Assembly: GCA_902768435.1 (NCBI GenBank)
Contig: CACXLJ010000015.1
Coordinates: 4,253-68,252, forward strand
Length of the DNA: 64,000 nucleotides
From: an uncultured Bacteroidales bacterium
Lineage (GTDB): Bacteria; Bacteroidota; Bacteroidia; Bacteroidales; Muribaculaceae
Direction of reading: 5' to 3'
The notes beneath the pieces were generated by a model. The model was not told the origin of the DNA and did no database searches. It was given only the letters and a program-made list of their open reading frames with translations. Below are positions 1-8,700 of the stretch, in pieces. Each line of letters begins with the position of its first letter. Within the stretch, counting starts at the first letter, position 1. The position numbers and the translations under genes are program-made.

Positions 1-289
1 AATCATAAGCTGAGATAGGAAGCGGCAAATACCTTTCTTTCGCTTCATTATAAAAGACTGTATATGGCTCATAAAAGTTAGCTACATCAGACGTTACAAT
101 TGAATTAACGTGATGATTTGCACGAATGTATTCTATATTCCTCATTATACAATCCGCAACTTGACGCTTATCGCGCTCATAGATTTCTGGTGTAATTAAT
201 GGGCACTCAGGCTGCTTAATCTGCTTAGGCTTGCAGGAGAAAAGAGACAGCAAAAGAAGAACTATTATTGAAACAGATTGCATTCTCAT
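1..289 (-). CDS. Putative lipoprotein, 5' part only (runs off the window start)
   Basis: Not in the ORF track. Manual translation from ATG at 289 gives MRMQSVSIIVLLLLSLFSCKPKQ... (lipobox LFSC), open to position 1. TACCTTTG promoter-like site at 324-317. Confidence 0.7.
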   Translation of the reverse strand, partial: MRMQSVSIIVLLLLSLFSCKPKQIKQPECPLITPEIYERDKRQVADCIMRNIEYIRANHHVNSIVTSDVANFYEPYTVFYNEAKERYLPLPISAYD

Positions 290-316
290 TATCAATTGCT
301 ATTAGAATTTGTACGG

Positions 317-324
317 CAAAGGTA
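317..324 (-). promoter_or_regulatory. Bacteroidota sigma-A -7 promoter element (TAnnTTTG)
   Basis: TACCTTTG on the minus strand, 28 nt upstream of the ATG at 289. Confidence 0.6.
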
Positions 325-367
325 GCAAAATTCTTTGCTAAACACTTATTTTTCTCTTATTTTTCGG

Positions 368-403
368 TTACTTGTTATATTTCGGCGACTTGTTATTCAT
401 CAG
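368..403 (-). repeat. Cassette-boundary motif, copy A
   Basis: Minus strand CTGATGAATAACAAGTCGCCGAAATATAACAAGTAA; similar to copies at 2293-2331, 3198-3227 and 4393-4425. Confidence 0.6.
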
Positions 404-582
404 CAGTTTCGCATTCTCTTGTATAATCATCTGCGGTTGCGATTGGGCAAGTACCTGCGGTTCAGTTGTTGAGTGAGACGCATATTGTCCATTAATTGTG
501 AGTATCATAAAAAAAGCGATTGGTTATACAAAGGTAAACCAACCGCTTCATGCCTTAAAAGATGTAGCAGATAAATTGGAAT

Positions 583-1401
583 TTACTCTAAAGAATAGCC
601 TTTCACAACAATCATAGGACCGGCAGGGATTTTTTTCATCTTCCCTTTCACATTGTTGCGGGCATAGTAGCTTTTGAAGTTGACAGGGAAAGAGAGCCTA
701 CCTTTTCCCTTGATGTCAACAACGCTTATTGTGATACAATATTTGTTTTTCCCTTTAAGCACTATGAGTTCCTCTGGTCTGACATATATTTGTTTTCCAT
801 TGTCGGCAGGTGTGACACACTTGTAGATGGGTTTGTTTAGTACATTGACAAATTCTTTGTCTCGAACCTCGTAGCAGTTGAAACTCAACAAGCATTCCTC
901 ATACTCGCACTTATCGATACTTACAATGATGTCAGTCAGCAGATAGTCTTTCTTTTTCTTAAAGATTGGCCCCCACTCCAAGTCACCCTTGCTATCGCCT
1001 TCGAAAGCGGCCTTACCCACACTTATCCATGACTTACCAGACAACGTTTGCGGCTTGTTTTTTTTGCCGTCAACTATGACTTCTGCAAGTTCGACGGACT
1101 TGTCTCGTAGCGTTACGGTCAGTTCCCGTCCATCGGCGTAAGACGCATAGGGAATCGTCGCCGTCTGATAGGAAACGTGAGTAACAGTCAGTTCATCCTT
1201 GCGCCCTGAGGGTACCGTTAGCGTGAAATACCCCTCTGCATCAGAGATAACGCCAACGCTATCTTCCTCGATGCCAATGCTGACGTACCCCACACCGGCA
1301 CCTTGCTCGTTGATGACGTGGCCTTTGACTATGGTCTGTGTTTGCGCTGCAATTCCAACAAATGCAAGTAGAACGATGGTAATAATCATCTTCATGTTCA
1401 T
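583..1401 (-). CDS. Secreted protein with N-terminal carboxypeptidase-regulatory-like (CarbopepD_reg_2) domain
   Basis: Signal peptide, then the typical 'VKGHVINEQGAGVGYVSIGI...GVISDAEGYFTL...VTHVSYQT...LAEVIV' pattern. Confidence 0.75.
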   Translation of the reverse strand: MNMKMIITIVLLAFVGIAAQTQTIVKGHVINEQGAGVGYVSIGIEEDSVGVISDAEGYFTLTVPSGRKDELTVTHVSYQTATIPYASYADGRELTVTLRDKSVELAEVIVDGKKNKPQTLSGKSWISVGKAAFEGDSKGDLEWGPIFKKKKDYLLTDIIVSIDKCEYEECLLSFNCYEVRDKEFVNVLNKPIYKCVTPADNGKQIYVRPEELIVLKGKNKYCITISVVDIKGKGRLSFPVNFKSYYARNNVKGKMKKIPAGPMIVVKGYSLE

Positions 1402-1443
1402 TACATTTTTTGTTTTAGCAAAAAACGATAATATGACTATGTT

Positions 1444-1725
1444 TCACACCGTTGCCGCTTCGTGATATACTTGAAGCACAGGAGCTTGCAATGCTTCTTC
1501 GATAGCAACAACCGTGTCAATCGTGAAATTGTGAGTCCCACGCATCCATTTACTTATCTCAGCCTCGCTCTTGCCAAGCATGAGCGCGAGATCTTTTTGC
1601 CGCAGGTTACGCTCCACAAGAATCTGATGAATGCGGTCAACAATCTGAAATGAAAGGCTTACGCGTTCTCTCACTTCGGGGCTGACCTGTCGGCGGCGTT
1701 CCTCAATTATCTTACTCCGTTTCAT
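1444..1725 (-). CDS. XRE/Cro-family HTH protein, probable antitoxin (HigA-like)
   Basis: 'LRQKDLALMLGKSEAEISKWMRGTHNFTIDTVVAIEEAL' HTH; overlaps the upstream gene by 14 nt. Confidence 0.8.
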   Translation of the reverse strand: MKRSKIIEERRRQVSPEVRERVSLSFQIVDRIHQILVERNLRQKDLALMLGKSEAEISKWMRGTHNFTIDTVVAIEEALQAPVLQVYHEAATV

Positions 1726-2200
1726 CTCTGCTAAAGTTTAAGTTTCCAACAATTTCTTTATCTACCAAAACTATTGTGCCGTCTTTAATCCTTGATGAAA
1801 TAAAGCGGCTTGTATCAATCAATAGTTTGACGTATGGTGCAAGTTGCTCGCTTTCTTCCCATGTTGGTGCATCTTTAACTCCACCGTTGCCAAAGACCAA
1901 AATTTTATCTGACAATCGCAGGCAATAAAGCCGCACTTTGTTGCCAATGTCAATCGGTATCACGCCCACGCCGTCGCCATAGCGGCCTTCGGGACGGAAA
2001 TAGCGTTCAAGCGCACCTCGCTCGGCAATATTGTCGAGCCAAGATATGACGACATCGATATCCTCGTCATATTCACTACCAGTTGGGAATTTCTCAAAGA
2101 AACGCTCTAATTCAGAGAGTTCTTCCCCATCCAAATGGATGCTGTAGAAATTCACATTGGAATATTCTTCAACCAAATCTATGTAATAACGTTGTTTCAT
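1712..2200 (-). CDS. Probable RelE/HigB-like toxin
   Basis: 162 aa with a 'RLYCLRLSDKILVFGNGGVK' RelE/Gp49-like C-terminal pattern; toxin-first order coupled to an HTH gene. Confidence 0.55.
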   Translation of the reverse strand: MKQRYYIDLVEEYSNVNFYSIHLDGEELSELERFFEKFPTGSEYDEDIDVVISWLDNIAERGALERYFRPEGRYGDGVGVIPIDIGNKVRLYCLRLSDKILVFGNGGVKDAPTWEESEQLAPYVKLLIDTSRFISSRIKDGTIVLVDKEIVGNLNFSRDETE

Positions 2201-2225
2201 TCTTAACTTTTAAGTTATCTTGCCG

Positions 2226-2257
2226 CAAAGGTAAGTCAAAGAATTCAATGCGCCAAA
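2226..2257 (-). promoter_or_regulatory. Bacteroidota promoter (-33 TTTG / -7 TACCTTTG)
   Basis: TTTG at 2257-2254 and TACCTTTG at 2233-2226, 20-nt spacer, upstream of the 2200 ATG. Confidence 0.65.
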
Positions 2258-2292
2258 TAAATTAACTTAAAAATTAAGTTTTGTTGCAATTT

Positions 2293-2331
2293 TTATTTTC
2301 TCTTGGATTTTGGACTTTTATTATTCATCAG
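2293..2331 (-). repeat. Cassette-boundary motif, copy B
   Basis: Minus strand CTGATGAATAATAAAAGTCCAAAATCCAAGAGAAAATAA; a partial extra copy CTCATGAACAACAG lies just upstream (2365-2352). Confidence 0.6.
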
Positions 2332-2434
2332 CCTTTGGTAATCGTCCTGCGCTGTTGTTCATGAGTTTTATAACTTTGGTATAAGTTCCTCAACCGCTTG
2401 ATGATGTATAAGATGGGGAGTGAAAGATTGGAGT

Positions 2435-3130
2435 TTACTTGTCTGTTCCTGCACCAGCGCTTTTGTCTTTGGCTGGTTTGTCAACAAAGTACCATATGGC
2501 AATCCAAAAGACGATGACACAGATGAAGGCCACAAGGAAAGTGGTGTCGGCGAGTCGTCCGCGCTTGGCAAAGTTCACGATGCCATGAAATGCAGCACAG
2601 AACAGCAGCGAGTGCGTATCTGTCGCGACCTTTCCAATTCCCCATGAGGCAAATAGCAAAATCAAGAAGAACGGCAAGATGTTGCGCGAATCCAAATCTA
2701 AATGCCAGAGGAACCACATCACCGTGATAATGAGGACATATTGCCACACGGGCAATCCTTTGAGTTCGTTCTGTAAAAATCCTCGCCAACCATACTCCTC
2801 TAAAAGTCCATACACGAATGCCATGAAGCAAATTATAGCTGTATCTAATCCACCGATTATGCCAAAAACGAGGCAAGGCACTGCTATTGTTGCAATGGAT
2901 TTCCAAACAGACTTGCCTGCGATGGTATATTCGGTCTTGCGCTTGAAAATAGCCATAGCAACAAGTGCTCCAATGATAGGTCCGAGCCCCGTGGAAAGCT
3001 CCAGTGCATAGTTCACCCCATGTGACGGGTATATGTTGCCGAGAATTATTGTTGTCAGGCGCAGAGCTAAGGCTATTATATAAAAAGTGGCTATAGCGCC
3101 AATATGAATGTTCTTATAAACAAATTTCAT
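2435..3130 (-). CDS. CPBP (CAAX protease / Abi family) intramembrane glutamic endopeptidase
   Basis: Polytopic, with EEYGWRG, WFLWH and H-x3-N (FHGIVN) motifs. Confidence 0.85.
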   Translation of the reverse strand: MKFVYKNIHIGAIATFYIIALALRLTTIILGNIYPSHGVNYALELSTGLGPIIGALVAMAIFKRKTEYTIAGKSVWKSIATIAVPCLVFGIIGGLDTAIICFMAFVYGLLEEYGWRGFLQNELKGLPVWQYVLIITVMWFLWHLDLDSRNILPFFLILLFASWGIGKVATDTHSLLFCAAFHGIVNFAKRGRLADTTFLVAFICVIVFWIAIWYFVDKPAKDKSAGAGTDK

Positions 3131-3197
3131 CCTTGTATTCTCAAATCGATTTACCGTTCTGATTTGACTGCAAAGTTAGGCATTTTTCTCTATCCTT

Positions 3198-3227
3198 GTT
3201 TGTTCTTGGGGGATATTTATTCATCAA
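3198..3227 (-). repeat. Cassette-boundary motif, copy C (overlaps the YhcG stop codon)
   Basis: Minus strand TTGATGAATAAATATCCCCCAAGAACAAAC; TAACTTTG promoter element at 3178-3171 follows it. Confidence 0.5.
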
Positions 3228-4338
3228 CAGCTGCTTGTTCTATGTCTTCAATTTGCGGTAACGTTGATGCAACATCGGCAAACAGTTTTTGAGTCTCGTA
3301 TTCTGCGATTCCTAATGGTTGTGTTACGCCTCGCAGGGCAAAACTTGCTTTAGTGTCGCTCTTGGAGCGGCAAAGCAGCAGACCAATTGTTGGCTTATCT
3401 TCTGGAGTTTTCACATATTCGTCCACTGCCGAGATATAGAAGTTCAGTTTGCTTACAAACTCTGGGATAAATTCAACCGCTTTCAGTTCTACCACCACAT
3501 AACAATGGAGTTTAAGATGATACATCAAAATGTCAATGTAGTAGTCGTCGCCATCCACGCTGACATGATATTGCCTACCGACAAAAGAAAAGCCTTTACC
3601 CATTTCAAGCAGAAATTCGGTGACGCGTGCAGCAAGCCCTTTCTCAATATCCAACTCGTTTTGAAGGGCGATGGTACCCAAGAAACTGAAATTATATGGA
3701 TCTTTGAAGGAGTATTTTGCCAAATCTGACTGTGGCGATGGCAATGTCAGGTCAAAATTGTTGATTGAGGCCCCTTTCGCTGAAAGATAGTTATTTGCGA
3801 CTTGCATCAACATCACATCGCGACTCCAGCCTTCATGAGCCGTTGCCATAATGTACAATGCTCTTTCTGCCAAGTTCTTCACTTTGGGGATAAGCGAGAT
3901 GTGGTGATACCATGTGATTTGTGCAAGCGGTACTTGCACAAAGTCTTTCCCTCCTTCTTGCAATTTGGCAAGCGGAACTTGCCAAATTGGGTATTCCTGT
4001 AATTGTGCAAGTGACACTTGCACAAATGGAAAATCGGGGTATGCCTCAGCAAACATTCTCATATATTTGAGGTTACGCACAGAAAAGCCCCTGTCGTCAG
4101 GGAACTTGCGCGACAAGTCGGAAGATAGTCGGTCAATTACTTGCGCACCCCAACCCAACTTCTGCTGCTTTTCTAAGATGTCGTTACCGATTGACCAATA
4201 AAGAGATAAGAGCTCAGAATTGACTTTTAGAATAGCTTGAAGTTTAGCCATTTCAATTCTCGACTCTATAGCTTTTCGCCATGCTTCATAACCATCAGGA
4301 AGCATGTCAGTGGTATCTGGTAAAATAATGTCTGACAT
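3217..4338 (-). CDS. YhcG / DUF1016 family PD-(D/E)XK nuclease
   Basis: N-terminal 'LYWSIGNDIL...WGAQVIDRLSSDL...GFSVRNLKYMRMF' and C-terminal 'FLLEMGKGFSFVGRQ...YIDILMYHLKLHCYVVVELK'. Start moved to ATG 4338 because a TACTTTTG promoter element lies at 4374-4367. Confidence 0.9.
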   Translation of the reverse strand: MSDIILPDTTDMLPDGYEAWRKAIESRIEMAKLQAILKVNSELLSLYWSIGNDILEKQQKLGWGAQVIDRLSSDLSRKFPDDRGFSVRNLKYMRMFAEAYPDFPFVQVSLAQLQEYPIWQVPLAKLQEGGKDFVQVPLAQITWYHHISLIPKVKNLAERALYIMATAHEGWSRDVMLMQVANNYLSAKGASINNFDLTLPSPQSDLAKYSFKDPYNFSFLGTIALQNELDIEKGLAARVTEFLLEMGKGFSFVGRQYHVSVDGDDYYIDILMYHLKLHCYVVVELKAVEFIPEFVSKLNFYISAVDEYVKTPEDKPTIGLLLCRSKSDTKASFALRGVTQPLGIAEYETQKLFADVASTLPQIEDIEQAAVDE

Positions 4339-4392
4339 ATAATGATAATTTGCTATATTAATGCCACAAAAGTACACATTATTTTGCTAACA

Positions 4393-4425
4393 ACGCTTGT
4401 TCTTGGGCTATTTGTTGTTCATCAG
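4393..4425 (-). repeat. Cassette-boundary motif, copy D
   Basis: Minus strand CTGATGAACAACAAATAGCCCAAGAACAAGCGT. Confidence 0.6.
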
Positions 4426-4453
4426 ACGCTAGATGCTGTAAAGGACGATACAT

Positions 4454-4867
4454 TTACTTGTCAAACAAGAGTAAGATAACTCCAGCCTTCCAAATGTTTT
4501 CTCCACTGCCGTAGCCTACCACATCATAATGCTTGTCTTTGACTTCTCCAGTCGTTATATTTACATAACCCACAGTGTTATAATGGTTGTCTTCGACCTG
4601 ATATGTGATCTCGGTTTGCTTCTTGATTGAGCCAGCACCATATCCATGTGTGTCAGTTACTTTCCCGTCTGAAAACACATTGCCAACCATATCGTAATAC
4701 TTATCCTTGACAGTACCACCCGCATAGGCATAACCAATGGTAGTATGCCACTTGTCCATCAGTGTCGTTTCCACTGGAAGCGACACATAATTATCCTCGT
4801 CAAAATCATCACAACTGACCAAGACAATCATCATGCAGATAATATGTAGAATAGCTTTTATTCTCAT
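4454..4867 (-). CDS. Hypothetical lipoprotein with short internal repeats
   Basis: Lipobox LVSC followed by acidic residues; repeated 'KDKYY/HYD.VG' segments. Confidence 0.7.
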   Translation of the reverse strand: MRIKAILHIICMMIVLVSCDDFDEDNYVSLPVETTLMDKWHTTIGYAYAGGTVKDKYYDMVGNVFSDGKVTDTHGYGAGSIKKQTEITYQVEDNHYNTVGYVNITTGEVKDKHYDVVGYGSGENIWKAGVILLLFDK

Positions 4868-4906
4868 ATTGTCAGTTCATTGGAACAAAGTCCATGTCGA
4901 GCCCTC

Positions 4907-5389
4907 TTATTTGGGGCTGAGTGTGGCGAGCATGTTGACCAGGATGTCGAGGGCATCGTTAGCCCGCTCAAACGGGCAGTTTATTGTGCCACTGAAACAT
5001 TCGGGCTCCTTTGAAATCATGATAAACCACACCGTCACGGTCTGTGTGCCATCGTTCTGGTCGGTGGCGATAGAGCGCACGAGGGCATAGTCGTCCTTGA
5101 CGAGTTTCTGGTCGACCTTGTTTCCGTTGCTTTCTTTCATGTACACCCAGTTGTCAACACATTCCTGTAGCTCCGTCTTCTTGGGGCCAATTTCGTTGTA
5201 ACTGACGTCGAAGGTGATAACTTCGTCGGCCGAGGCCAGGTTTACGAATGTTTCGCTGTCCCAGGTCACTTCCCAGTCGGCAGGATAATCAATCTTGAAA
5301 GCTTTGTTCTCATAGGTCTTGACATTTTGTGCGCTAGTTGCCAGACTCCATGTCAGCAATATCATGACGAGCAAAGATGATTTCTTCAT
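4907..5389 (-). CDS. Secreted hypothetical protein, PsbP/DcrB-like
   Basis: Signal peptide MKKSSLL...SAQN (ATG 5389 preferred over 5527); 'YENKAFKIDYPADWEV' start typical of PsbP-like folds. Confidence 0.55.
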   Translation of the reverse strand: MKKSSLLVMILLTWSLATSAQNVKTYENKAFKIDYPADWEVTWDSETFVNLASADEVITFDVSYNEIGPKKTELQECVDNWVYMKESNGNKVDQKLVKDDYALVRSIATDQNDGTQTVTVWFIMISKEPECFSGTINCPFERANDALDILVNMLATLSPK

Positions 5390-5704
5390 AAACGATGCAT
5401 TTAGTAGGTTTGTGTAGAATTGAATTACAAAGTTACTTGTAATTATGAAACGAAACCCAATAACAGCCATAAAAACTCCATTTTTGCCAAAAAAAGAAAT
5501 ACAACTTGCATACCGACCCAAGCACAAGTGGAGGTGAATTAATTTTTTTCAAGAAATTTGCCACTTTCATGCTTATTTCGCAAAAAATATGTTACCTTTG
5601 TGGACATCAAGACTACATATTGCTTTTAAGCGGCAATAGAGCCGAGAGTTTACTACACAACCAATAAAACGACTATTGAACAATAAACCATAAAACCAAT
5701 AATC

Positions 5705-8700
5705 ATGTACAAAATTGAAAACCATCCCATTATTGATCTTCCTAAAGAAGAATATGTGGAATTCAAGTTTGAAGGGAGGACCGTGCGCGGTCAGAAAGGC
5801 AAAACCATAGCAGCCGCCCTTCATCAGGCAGGACTCATAGTGCACAGCCACAGTACCACAGGCCGCAATCGCTCGCTGGAGTGCGGCATTGGCAAGTGCG
5901 GAGCCTGCGAAATGCTTGTCGACGGACAGGTGCGCCGCATTTGCATCACGAGCGTTGACGGCGTGAAAGAGGTGCGCGAGATACCGAAGGACTATTTGCC
6001 CGAGGGCAAGGCTCGTGCAGCCAGTGAAACCAAGATTTACAAGACTACGGTTGCCATCATAGGCGGCGGCCCTGCCGGACTGGCGTGCCGCGAACAGCTC
6101 ACCGCACTGGGAATCCCCAACATAGTGGTTGACAACAACGCCACCGAGGGCGGCCAATTCAATATGCAGACCCACCAGTTCTTCTTCTTCGAGAAGGAGC
6201 AGAAGTTTGGCGGCATGCGCGGTTTTGACATTGCCAAAACACTTGCTGGCGACAACCACGACGGCATCTTGCTCAACAACACCGTGTGGGACCTGCTCGA
6301 AGGCCGTCGCATAGCGCTGAAGAACATCGTTACCCAGGAGGTGAGCTACATCGATGCCGACCATCTGGTGGTAGCCACAGGTGCCGTGCCGTTCATGCCT
6401 GTGTTTGAGAACGACGATGTGCCGGGCGTTTACACCGCTGCCGTGTTCCAGAAGATGATGAACCAGGAGCACACCCTGCTGGGTAAGCGCGTGCTCACTG
6501 TGGGTGCTGGCAACATCGGTTACCTCACCAGCTATCAGGCCATGCAGGCGGGCGCAACCATCAAGGCCATTATCGAGGGCATGGACCACGAGGGCGGCTT
6601 CCCGGTTCAGGCTAACCGCGTACGCCGATTGGGTATCCCCATCATGACCTCGCATGTGCTCATTCGCGCCATTCCCAACGACGACTATACCGGTGTGACT
6701 GGTGCCGTGATTGCCGAGTGCAAGAACTTCCAGCCCATACCCGGCACCGAGCGTGTGATTGACGACATCGACATCATCAACATCTGCACGGGTCTGATTC
6801 CCGACAACCAGCTGCTCGTGAAGGGCCGCTCGGTATTTGGACGCAATGTGTATGGCGCCGGCGATGCCGTTCGCATTGGCGAGGGCACCAGTGCCGTGCT
6901 TCGTGGCAAGCAGGTGGCCTATGAGGTGGCTCAGGAATTGGGCATCCGTTTCCCCTATGAAGATTATCTCGAGGTATCGCGTCAGTATATCGACTCGCAG
7001 CAGCGTCCCGTGCGTCTGCTCGACAAGCCACGCATCCCCAGTGAGGAGCGCATGGCACTGAAACCCTATGTGAAGATCAACTGCCTGTATGGGTTTGCCT
7101 GCAATCCGTGTACATTCTCGTGTCCGCAGGGTGCCATCAGTAAGCCCACCACATCGTCGGTGCCTATGGTCGACTACGATAAGTGCATCGGCTGCATGCA
7201 GTGCGTGAACCACTGCCCGGGTCTGGCCATCTTTGGTTACGACAAACGCAAGAATGTGGTGTTCCTGCCTGTAGAATATGAAGTGGAAGAGGGCAAAGAA
7301 GTGTTCCTGGTCGATGACAACGGCGCCAAAGTGGGCGAGGGCGTTATCGAGAAAGTGCTCAAGAAAGACAACAAGACCAATGTGGCTCGCGTCAAGGTGG
7401 ACCAGGTGGATGAATTAAACCAAGTGAACGGCTTTATCCTCAAGGAGCGCTATCCCGAGCCGCTGAACCTGCGTCCGCTCACCAACCCCGAGGAAGGCAA
7501 ATCGTTTGTGTGCCACTGCGAGGATGTGGATGTGAAGACGCTGTTGGCAGTGATTGGCGACCGCAAGTATATCTCGGTCGACGAACTCAAGCACACTACC
7601 CGCATGGGTATGGGTCCCTGCCGTGGCAAGCGCTGTGTGTCGCGCGCCAAACAAATCCTTCGTGCTCACGGCATTGAGGTGACCGGCGACAGCACTCCGC
7701 GTGCCCCGCTTGCCAACCAGGTGACTCTGGGCGATGTGTATAATGGCGAGTCGAAGGAAACCTTCGTGTTCGAACATGGCTCGGTGATCGAGAAAGCCGA
7801 GACCGAAATCATTGTGGCTGGCGGTGGTATGGCCGGCAGCGCGGCATTCCGCTACTTTGCTGAAGCTGGCAAGCGCGTTGTCCTGGTCAACTATGACCGC
7901 GGTTCGACATGGCGCTGCATTGGCGGCGGTCGCCCGGCATTCTCCAACCCCGACATCAGCGACATTGCCATGCACAACCTGGAAATCTTCCGCGACGACC
8001 AGCAGCATTGCAACATCGACCTGAAGATGACCCGCTATGTGAACCTTGTGCACGACGATGCTACCTATCGCTCACTCGATGCTTCACGCGCCTGGAGCGA
8101 GGCCTATATGATCGACCGCAAGGACTTCACCAAGAAGATTTCGCCTTATTGGAATCCTAATGATAACATCTATAGCCACGCACTGATTTCAGAAAATTGC
8201 TGGCAGGCTACACCGGGCCGCACCATCGACTATGTGCGCACGGTGGGCAAGCAGCATGGCGGCGAGGTGCTCGAGGACTGCGAGGTGCTGCATGTGGAGC
8301 GCGTGGGCGCCAAGTATCGCGTGCTGGTGCGCCGTCACGACAAGCACTATGTGGAATACACCTGCGACCACTTTGTGAACGCCATGGGGTGGGGCTCAGA
8401 GAAATTTGCCGACATGCTCGGCATCGACACCCAACTCTATCCTGTGAAGCACCAGGCCTTCATCACCCGCCGACTGCCCAACATGGGTGTGAACGGTGAC
8501 TCGCTCGACATGATTATCGACCGCCGTCACTATAAGGGATTCAATGCCGTGTACGGACAGCAGTTCCTGCACACTGGTCAAATCATTGGCTGCGCGTCGC
8601 CCGACTGCGATGCCTATGAAGCACGCCAGAACCTGAAGTACAACAGTCAGGCATTCCTCAAGATTGTGAGCGAGATGTTTGCTCAGTGGATACCAAACTT

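Follow-up and report, generated by a model that had tools for sequence, protein, structure and literature searches.

Arrays of cargo genes separated by tape-measure gene scars in uncultured rumen Bacteroidales: a probable phage-less remnant of a moron hotspot

Cryptic prophages keep genes of lysogenic conversion, and the tRNA-linked islands of tycheposons hold arrays of attachment-site remnants. The concept of the phage moron comes from HK97 and HK022 (Juhala et al. 2000, as cited in PMC10884400), with HK97 gp15 and JBD26 Tab as examples located in late operons. Phages of the P2/P4 type have defence hotspots (Rousset et al. 2022, PMC9122126, as cited in PMC11364771), and Tai systems are found in moron loci (PMC11364771). 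In the Bacteroidales, rAID-1 arrays (Ross et al., bioRxiv 10.1101/471110) are headed by a conserved XerD-family recombinase and contain cargo resembling immunity genes of type VI secretion systems (T6SS). In this article, we analyse an array of small accessory genes at one end of a 64,000-nucleotide (nt) stretch of DNA from an uncultured Bacteroidales bacterium (hereafter the window; contig C15:4253-68252 of genome G000, which is 2.75 Mb long and 99.9% complete). An earlier note, made from the window sequence, had described the array as a non-attC cassette system, or as the product of serial integration at one hotspot, in which the genes are preceded by a degenerate ~30-base-pair (bp) repeat recognized by a recombinase encoded elsewhere. 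We find that the repeats are remnants of a phage tape-measure gene (TMP; 1403 amino acids, aa) and that related units occupy the gap between TMP and a 670-aa baseplate-hub-like gene (P670) in prophages of the same genus. The locus is, in our judgement, quite probably a phage-less remnant of the moron hotspot of a lineage of temperate tailed phages endemic in this uncultured genus of rumen Bacteroidales.

All four minus-strand copies of the repeat are present where the earlier note had placed them, with extents that we refine to 368-484 (site 1), 2293-2352 (site 2), 3190-3230 (site 3) and 4387-4428 (site 4). The core of the motif, TGATGAAYAAYAA, has 3 matches in the window with at most 1 mismatch where 0.52 are expected, the gapped consensus has 3 where 0.00 are expected, and the genome as a whole has 4 exact copies of the 14-mer, of which 3 lie within the 4-kb stretch of the array. 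A pattern search of 60 relatives detected the motif in six further genomes of the same genus, and the reversed pattern used as a control gave 0 matches. The enrichment in the window, the genome count and the empty control rule out a chance motif of AT-rich DNA, an outcome that the note itself had named as one that would undo its reading. Scanned across the genome and its relatives, the motif is non-random, belongs to the same genus and varies in the manner of coding sequence, a property that had been overlooked. Its variants, in 7 genomes of the genus, differ synonymously and follow CTG ATG AAY AAY AAR (TCN or AGY) CCN AAR, which encodes LMNNKSPK, the serine being coded by TCN or by AGY across copies. 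The motif also forms the end of long open reading frames (ORFs; >513 aa in G017, >446 aa in G006) with the C-terminus ...LNEPFVTVNTVTGDLGIKQAQDDYQRLMNNKSPKNKRK*, and the full gene that ends in it, 1403 aa long, matches PF10145 (7e-21) and tape-measure PHROGs (best 3e-47). Because the variation is synonymous, ORFs end in the motif and the gene matches tape-measure families, the four sites are remnants of the TMP 3' end (...AQDDYQRLMNNKSPKNKRK*), which retain between 7 and 46 of its final codons; the proposed role of the motif as a recombinase recognition site is not borne out. A search for known RNA families in window positions 1-6000 returned none above noise.

The TAnnTTTG element that the note had reported behind each site is found at 4367-4374 (TACTTTTG, after site 4), 3171-3178 (TAACTTTG, after site 3), 2222-2234 (after site 2) and 315-325 (after site 1), in each case as a predicted promoter followed by a gene. 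Conservation at the level of amino acids, together with one copy that ends a 46-aa ORF behind a promoter-like box, might be taken to mean that the motif encodes functional short peptides ending LMNNKSPK... or is a transcription-factor binding site common to stress genes. We regard this explanation as extremely improbable. The conservation is inherited from the 1403-aa TMP, while the copies in the array carry an in-frame TAG (one), a frameshift (one) or no start codon (one). The 46-aa ORF is chimeric, with P670 codons 1-8 (485-508) fused to pieces of TMP (368-484), and the distance between the motif and the -7 box varies from ~12 to 58 nt in the window. Functional short-ORF peptides were rejected on the grounds of the stop, the frameshift and the chimeric origin. 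Assignment of the N-terminal MILTINGQ of this ORF to TMP was also rejected, since the DNA alignment identifies it as the start of P670.

The origin of the scars is seen in prophages of the genus. In G017 the gene order is TMP, a 175-aa cargo gene, P670, a convergent integrase and host rpsA; the integrase has arm-binding and SAM-like domains, and its gene lies ~2.3 kb from the TMP|P670 junction in prophages. A longer copy of the element, in G014, also contains an endolysin and a weak match to large terminase. P670 falls into no Pfam or PHROG family and has only unnamed homologues, and a comparison with 50,697 records of cultured or deposited phages yielded one weak partial match only. Its AlphaFold model (pLDDT 78, pTM 0.79) led a fold search to Mu gp44, the MuSo2 43-kDa protein and VgrG-type baseplate hubs, and on this predicted fold P670 resembles a baseplate hub of the VgrG kind. 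Twenty TMP|P670 junctions were taken from the genus. Four are empty, the TMP stop codon standing 2-11 nt before the P670 ATG (e.g., TAA-CTT-ATG), and the other 16 contain 0.5-2.6 kb of varied cargo, with a TAnnTTTG box 12-60 nt past the TMP stop. The cargo is thus located, like that of phage morons, between genes that are adjacent in related phages.

Some junctions hold more than one unit. The prophage locus L062 (G125) consists of an intact TMP, unit 1, an 11-codon TMP remnant, unit 2, a conserved hairpin described below and an intact P670. L061 (G120:C6) comprises three units; TMP remnants occur at two internal positions, the first hairpin is followed by a short P670 start, and behind the units are an intact P670 and the integrase. 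The TMP of this locus is truncated at the contig end and aligns in two parts. Two hairpins are present in L068. These multi-unit arrays demonstrate that tandem stacking occurs in the prophage tail module, between TMP and P670. The idea of serial additions at one hotspot thus survives in modified form: the hotspot lies in the phage genome, between the tape-measure and hub genes, and not in the chromosome. Two further observations concern the layout of these prophages. In L015 (10575-14085), L136 and L137 the hub-like gene is the final tail gene and is directly followed by the convergent integrase. This arrangement is unusual for a tail module, in that the tape-measure gene has no other baseplate or fibre genes behind it. 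In the putative prophage L134 (11221-15672; G014:C13), genes resembling an extracytoplasmic-function (ECF) sigma factor, an anti-sigma factor and a 778-aa CarboxypepD_reg/TonB receptor lie upstream of the tail genes and may be further cargo.

In nearly every occupied junction, the P670 ATG is immediately preceded by a conserved module composed of a -33 box and a hairpin that encloses a -7 box, a second boundary element that the earlier note had missed (hairpin 514-548 of the window and its relatives). The layout of the module is CGTCTTTT, ~9 nt, AAGCGGTTGAkTTAC-CTTTGnn-GTAAaTCAACCGCTT, AACTT-ATG(P670), with ~20 nt from TCTTTT to TAccTTTG. The consensus of Bacteroides promoters consists of TTTG at -33 and TAnnTTTG at -7, 19-21 bp apart, and the spacing in the module fits this consensus. 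Over 37 distinct copies the stem is 92% paired, compared with 25-42% when the partner columns are slid. Both sides have changed in 9 of the 15 stem pairs, none of 500 shuffles reached the observed values, and one stem pair is represented by 12 G-U pairs on the sense strand. The module probably terminates or stabilises the transcript of the cargo and initiates a new transcript into P670, which would allow the tail operon to tolerate a foreign unit. Judged from the sequence, the Bacteroidetes-type -7 box after each TMP stop and the covarying hairpin at most unit ends may be the putative promoter and terminator that would let a unit be expressed autonomously, as morons are.

Most units finish, at the 3' end, in an imperfect palindrome that is conserved and covaries, and this is also what one might expect of a site-specific system, in which the hairpin would act in an attC-like manner as single-stranded DNA and a tyrosine recombinase, for example the phage integrase, would move the units. 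Such a system would account for tandem arrays, for insertion always within the same 2-11-nt gap and for an integrase gene ~2.3 kb away. We nevertheless consider it improbable, for several reasons. The joints are imprecise and keep variable pieces of both flanking genes, and the hairpin is missing at several of them: in the window it is absent after the YhcG gene (site 3) and after the beta-flower gene (site 4), and it is absent from the internal joint of L062. Where present, the hairpin contains a complete -33/-7 promoter sequence placed in register with the ATG of P670, and this points to a role in transcription. The integrase is a usual phage integrase of the arm-binding and SAM-like kind, orphan arrays have no recombinase, and the cassettes would have their own promoters, unlike most integron cassettes.

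The array of the window is an orphan. Its genome, although 99.9% complete, contains no intact TMP, P670 or cognate integrase; only fragments of TMP and P670 remain, which is the state of a cryptic prophage remnant that has lost its intact phage functions. A PF00589 search of the whole genome found 3 tyrosine recombinase genes, on C5, C10 and C6, and none on C15. The earlier statement that no unit contains a recombinase is therefore correct and extends to the 4.2 kb left of the window and to the entire contig, and the recombinase that was expected beyond the left end is not there (C15:1-12000, and the contig-wide PF00589 search). What remains of the proposed cassette array is its modular composition, with serially added units that have predicted promoters of their own; no site-specific recombinase accompanies them. 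An independent assembly, L138, contains the same array at 99.7% identity over 13 kb, which argues against misassembly. Orphan arrays also occur in G012, G006 and G036. The arrays of G000 and G012 have an AraC-gene right flank in common, in distinction from the intact prophage of G017, which adjoins rpsA.

Several observations relate to the flanks of the array and to other fragments of the element. Directly after the array, at C15:3270-3712, 36 codons remain from the 3' part of an AraC-family gene, together with the C-terminal portion of a secreted protein (...HRYFDLLGRPLNQKPEHGIYIDNGKKAIAK*). In G012:C131 the AraC orthologue is intact and borders directly on the end of the array; the right junction is thus common to both species. 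On the other side, the DNA upstream of a gene for a 1073-aa fused oxidoreductase (window 5390-5704 and L074-L093; 95-98% aa identity) differs in 20 of 20 species, the homology stopping ~25-40 nt before the ATG; this variable region is independent of the array. Elsewhere in G000, C14:26675-27260 holds a single orphan unit between corA and kbl, made up of a 163-aa outer-membrane beta-barrel-like gene, the hairpin module and a decayed P670 start, with no TMP remnant upstream. Pieces of ~100 aa from the C-terminus of P670 (aa ~565-670) stand alone in many genomes (for example G003:C44, G138:C67, G107:C43 and G145:C7) and may reflect either a second hotspot between P670 and the integrase or an endpoint at which decay there preferentially stops.

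Read along the minus strand, on which all features of the array lie, the window contains the PsbP-like gene; the beta-flower gene; site 4 and YhcG; site 3 and CPBP; a degenerate hairpin, site 2, a gene pair, the CarbopepD_reg gene and a hairpin; and finally the P670 start and site 1 followed by a lipoprotein gene. This makes at least five and probably six units. Proteins of the window were annotated by Pfam and PADLOC searches, and the Pfam matches (YhcG, Rce1/CPBP, HTH_3, CarbopepD_reg, Bflower_2 and a weak PsbP_2) agree with the gene calls of the earlier note, in which the beta-flower gene and probably the PsbP-like gene had not been recognized as units. The PsbP-like lipoprotein gene (4907-5389) finishes with AGC CCC AAA TAA (SPK*; 4907-4918, AGCCCCAAATAA), a TMP 3' remnant; the half-site reported at its end is thus real. 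Loci L094 and L146 have a decayed remnant of the hairpin and P670 start upstream of this gene, which is probably the most upstream unit. The next unit is a gene for a five-fold beta-flower lipoprotein (4454-4867). It keeps the -33 part of the right-end module, the hairpin having been deleted against site 4, and about 470 nt of it are ~80% identical in DNA to cargo that separates TMP from P670 in the intact prophage tail modules L056 and L059.

Site 4 consists of the last 13 codons of TMP (RLMNNK*PKNKRC*), including the in-frame TAG, and precedes a gene for a YhcG/DUF1016 nuclease of the PD-(D/E)xK type (3217-4338; YhcG_C 2e-54, DUF1016_N 1e-36). Site 3, a frameshifted TMP 3' remnant, overlaps the YhcG stop codon. 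It is degenerate, and its homology is confirmed by L002/L019, where the CPBP unit follows an intact copy of the motif; the promoter sequence behind it matches the one past the TMP stop in phage L054. The unit itself is a CPBP/Rce1-like membrane protease gene (2435-3130; Rce1-like 8e-13), and it is followed by a degenerate variant of the right-end hairpin (AAGCGGTTGAGGAACTTATACCAAAGTTATAAAACTC; 2363-2399), a variant junction that is also found in L023 (91%/102 nt), L021 and L061. Site 2 comprises the last 19 codons of TMP (AQDDYQRLMNNKSPKSKRK*; tblastn 89% to TMP aa 1385-1403, E 1e-7) and introduces the next unit, a 162-aa protein (the toxin of the earlier note), to which Pfam assigned no family, paired with an Xre-type HTH protein (1444-2200; HTH_3). 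This pair is 86% identical in DNA to L057/L097, where the order is intact TMP, pair, hairpin, P670 and integrase. A gene for a secreted CarboxypepD_reg-like protein (583-1401) comes next; it is present in L095, L098-L100 and L122 and absent from L096 and L097, and is an addition to the toxin-HTH unit within a sub-lineage. The right-end module of this unit (514-565) combines a -33 box (ACATCTTTT) with a hairpin at 514-548, inside which lies a -7 box (TACCTTTG), and is homologous to the module before the P670 ATG of intact prophages. It is directly followed by the first 8 codons of P670 (485-508), which read identically to the P670 start in L068 and L061, and by site 1, made of TMP ~aa 1328-1355 (~28 codons) and the last 12 codons, with a 29-codon internal deletion between CTG/TTG microhomology. 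The last unit is a gene for a 242-aa lipoprotein, the 5' part of which occupies 1-289 of the window and which continues to C15:3813. Beyond it are a hairpin (C15:3785-3747), ~25 nt of the P670 start and the AraC gene fragment. This unit is 76% identical in DNA over 839 nt to the third cargo unit of the prophage tail module L061.

Two units are candidate anti-phage defence systems, a function that the family matches suggest. In PADLOC the 162-aa protein matched PDC-M64B (8e-73) and the HTH protein PDC-M64C (5e-48) in the arrangement expected for that candidate system, and YhcG matched the single-gene candidate system PDC-S02 (4e-130); the other units of the window, including CPBP, had no PADLOC match. 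PDC-M64-like pairs are present in at least 20 other contigs of rumen Prevotellaceae/Bacteroidales (L101, L103-L117, L121, L124), at ~70-80% identity and without a TMP or hairpin remnant. The homology to these copies begins ~70 nt past the position of the TMP stop, which suggests that the phage captured a chromosomal two-gene PDC-M64-like module with its own promoter.

The comparison of strains and species, which the earlier note had proposed, reveals that units are gained, lost and replaced, with breakpoints in or next to the motif remnants. L094 contains the PsbP-like unit (93% identity), CPBP, a TMP remnant, and toxin plus HTH (98%); the beta-flower and YhcG units are missing. The joint, AGCCCCAAATAA|CAAACAAGGATAG, connects the remnant that ends the PsbP-like gene to the right half of site 3 and so lies inside two TMP scars. 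L139 and L140 (98% identical to G000) keep site 1 and have a different unit from ~17 nt past its stop. In L122 the toxin-HTH-CarbopepD_reg unit is 97.5% identical as far as the hairpin and P670 scar and divergent past it. The lengths of the scars are scattered, with 7-97 TMP codons (starts from aa 1307 to 1393) and P670 remnants of 0-40 codons, which fits unequal homologous or illegitimate recombination plus deletion, not precise site-specific exchange. A deletion of another kind is seen in L139 (4776-4786) and L140, where the loss of 647 bp, equivalent to window 767-1413, takes away roughly two thirds of the CarbopepD_reg gene along with its start codon region; the breakpoints are unrelated to unit borders.

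Turnover of this type could also mean that the array is maintained as a recombinase-free platform for cassette exchange, in which the scars are homology arms for the trade of morons between the chromosome and infecting or resident phages of this lineage. In its favour, whole units distinguish strains of ~98% identity, the breakpoints lie at the scars or immediately past them, divergence is unequal within one array (in L094, 93% for PsbP against 98% for CPBP-toxin), and the same units are found in phages and in orphan arrays. The orphan arrays of G000 and G012 differ in unit content next to their common right flank, and orphan remnants are widespread. We consider this alternative unlikely, while giving it more weight than the others. 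The scars are short (20-120 nt) and diverged, which makes them poor substrates for RecA, and independent prophage decay with repeat-mediated deletion explains every one of these observations equally well.

The history that we favour, a moron hotspot that lost its phage, may be outlined from the anatomy of the joints. A unit would open with a TAnnTTTG promoter placed behind the TMP stop, contain between one and three cargo genes and, mostly, close with a right-end module. New units could arise by unequal recombination between two phage genomes or tandem prophages, in which the P670 start of one is joined to the TMP end of the other. Such an event would leave between the units a scar composed of P670 5' and TMP 3' sequence, which would later shrink by deletion. 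The presence of a TMP scar just upstream of each promoter would then follow from the birth of the promoter beside the TMP stop codon. The rest of the prophage would subsequently have been lost from this genome and the units would have remained, with the short repeated scars still able to serve as homology for unit loss and replacement between strains. Several points weigh against this history. The comparison genomes are mostly metagenome-assembled genomes, one per species. YhcG and CPBP were not found as cargo of an intact prophage among the examined loci, and the locus bears neither an attachment site nor an integrase remnant that would identify it as a former prophage. Synteny across 20 species did not define a left border for the array, because the DNA upstream of the oxidoreductase gene differs everywhere. 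Of 133 genomes of the genus, 101 have fragments of P670, many of which are short and come from the N-terminus; this could hint at an organised process, and the uniformly short scars that flank orphan arrays could likewise hint at something beyond random decay.

If the favoured history is correct, an integron-like pattern can be explained without a new recombinase, and the locus offers a sequence-traceable route to a defence island, in which morons stack at one phage hotspot and then outlast the phage. The scars (...LMNNKSPKNKRK* and the P670 start) and the hairpin can serve as search handles for accessory and candidate defence genes across the genus, and would allow the flow of genes from phage to chromosome to be tracked at the resolution of single units. 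The hairpin itself may be regarded as a compact "insulator", a terminator-like stem combined with a full Bacteroidetes promoter, by virtue of which a foreign unit could sit in an essential tail operon. Should the exchange platform be the true explanation instead, the locus would represent a homology-guided, integron-analogous system that builds defence islands in rumen Bacteroidales.

Among described systems, integrons have in common with this locus a tandem series of small accessory genes that are unrelated to one another and point the same way, a structured repeat that most units have at their 3' end, and similar types of cargo. They differ in IntI, attI and attC core boxes, which are absent here, and their cassettes are mostly promoterless and read from one Pc promoter, whereas units of the present array have a TAnnTTTG box each and are imprecisely joined, and their repeats are gene fragments plus a promoter/terminator hairpin. 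As far as sequence can tell, there is no adjacent IntI and no attC at every unit end, in agreement with the earlier note's statement that the array is not an integron; by reading of the sequence, GTTRRRY boxes fit only one hairpin sub-type. The rAID-1 arrays likewise are integron-like in appearance and consist of small orphan protective genes with repetitive intergenic DNA in Bacteroidales. Here, in contrast, the head recombinase is absent and the repeats derive from a phage gene. The cargo identified by Pfam and PADLOC comprises a nuclease, a CPBP protein, an HTH pair and lipoproteins. Membership in either group was rejected because the defining recombinase is absent.

Cryptic prophages and tycheposon islands are similar in that beneficial cargo outlasts the phage functions and successive additions are marked by repeated pieces of a flanking gene. 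Unlike in arrays of attachment-site remnants, the repeat here is a structural gene beside an internal hotspot, and the units were apparently added in the phage, before its decay. Hotspots of the P2/P4 type resemble the TMP|P670 slot in their fixed position, conserved core-gene flanks and highly variable cargo, which in the slot includes candidate anti-phage genes and would likewise be exchanged by recombination in the flanks; the slot described here belongs to another phage group, another host phylum (Bacteroidota) and another genome position. To our knowledge, tandem multi-unit arrays with flank scars and frequent phage-less remnants have not been described for P2/P4-type hotspots. A literature search, with incomplete coverage of papers, found no description of a TMP-adjacent moron hotspot in Prevotella or other Bacteroidales. 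The closest likeness is to morons, which are generally dispensable to the phage and often protect the lysogen, and which are autonomous units with promoter and terminator; the units here, with their putative promoters and terminators, likewise lie between otherwise adjacent genes inside a tail or late operon. In contrast to classic morons, the units of this lineage use one TMP|hub slot throughout the genus, end in a common hairpin and form scar-separated tandem stacks that outlive the phage. The combination of a genus-wide fixed TMP|hub slot, a common terminator-plus-promoter hairpin, scarred tandem stacks and phage-less survival appears to be new.

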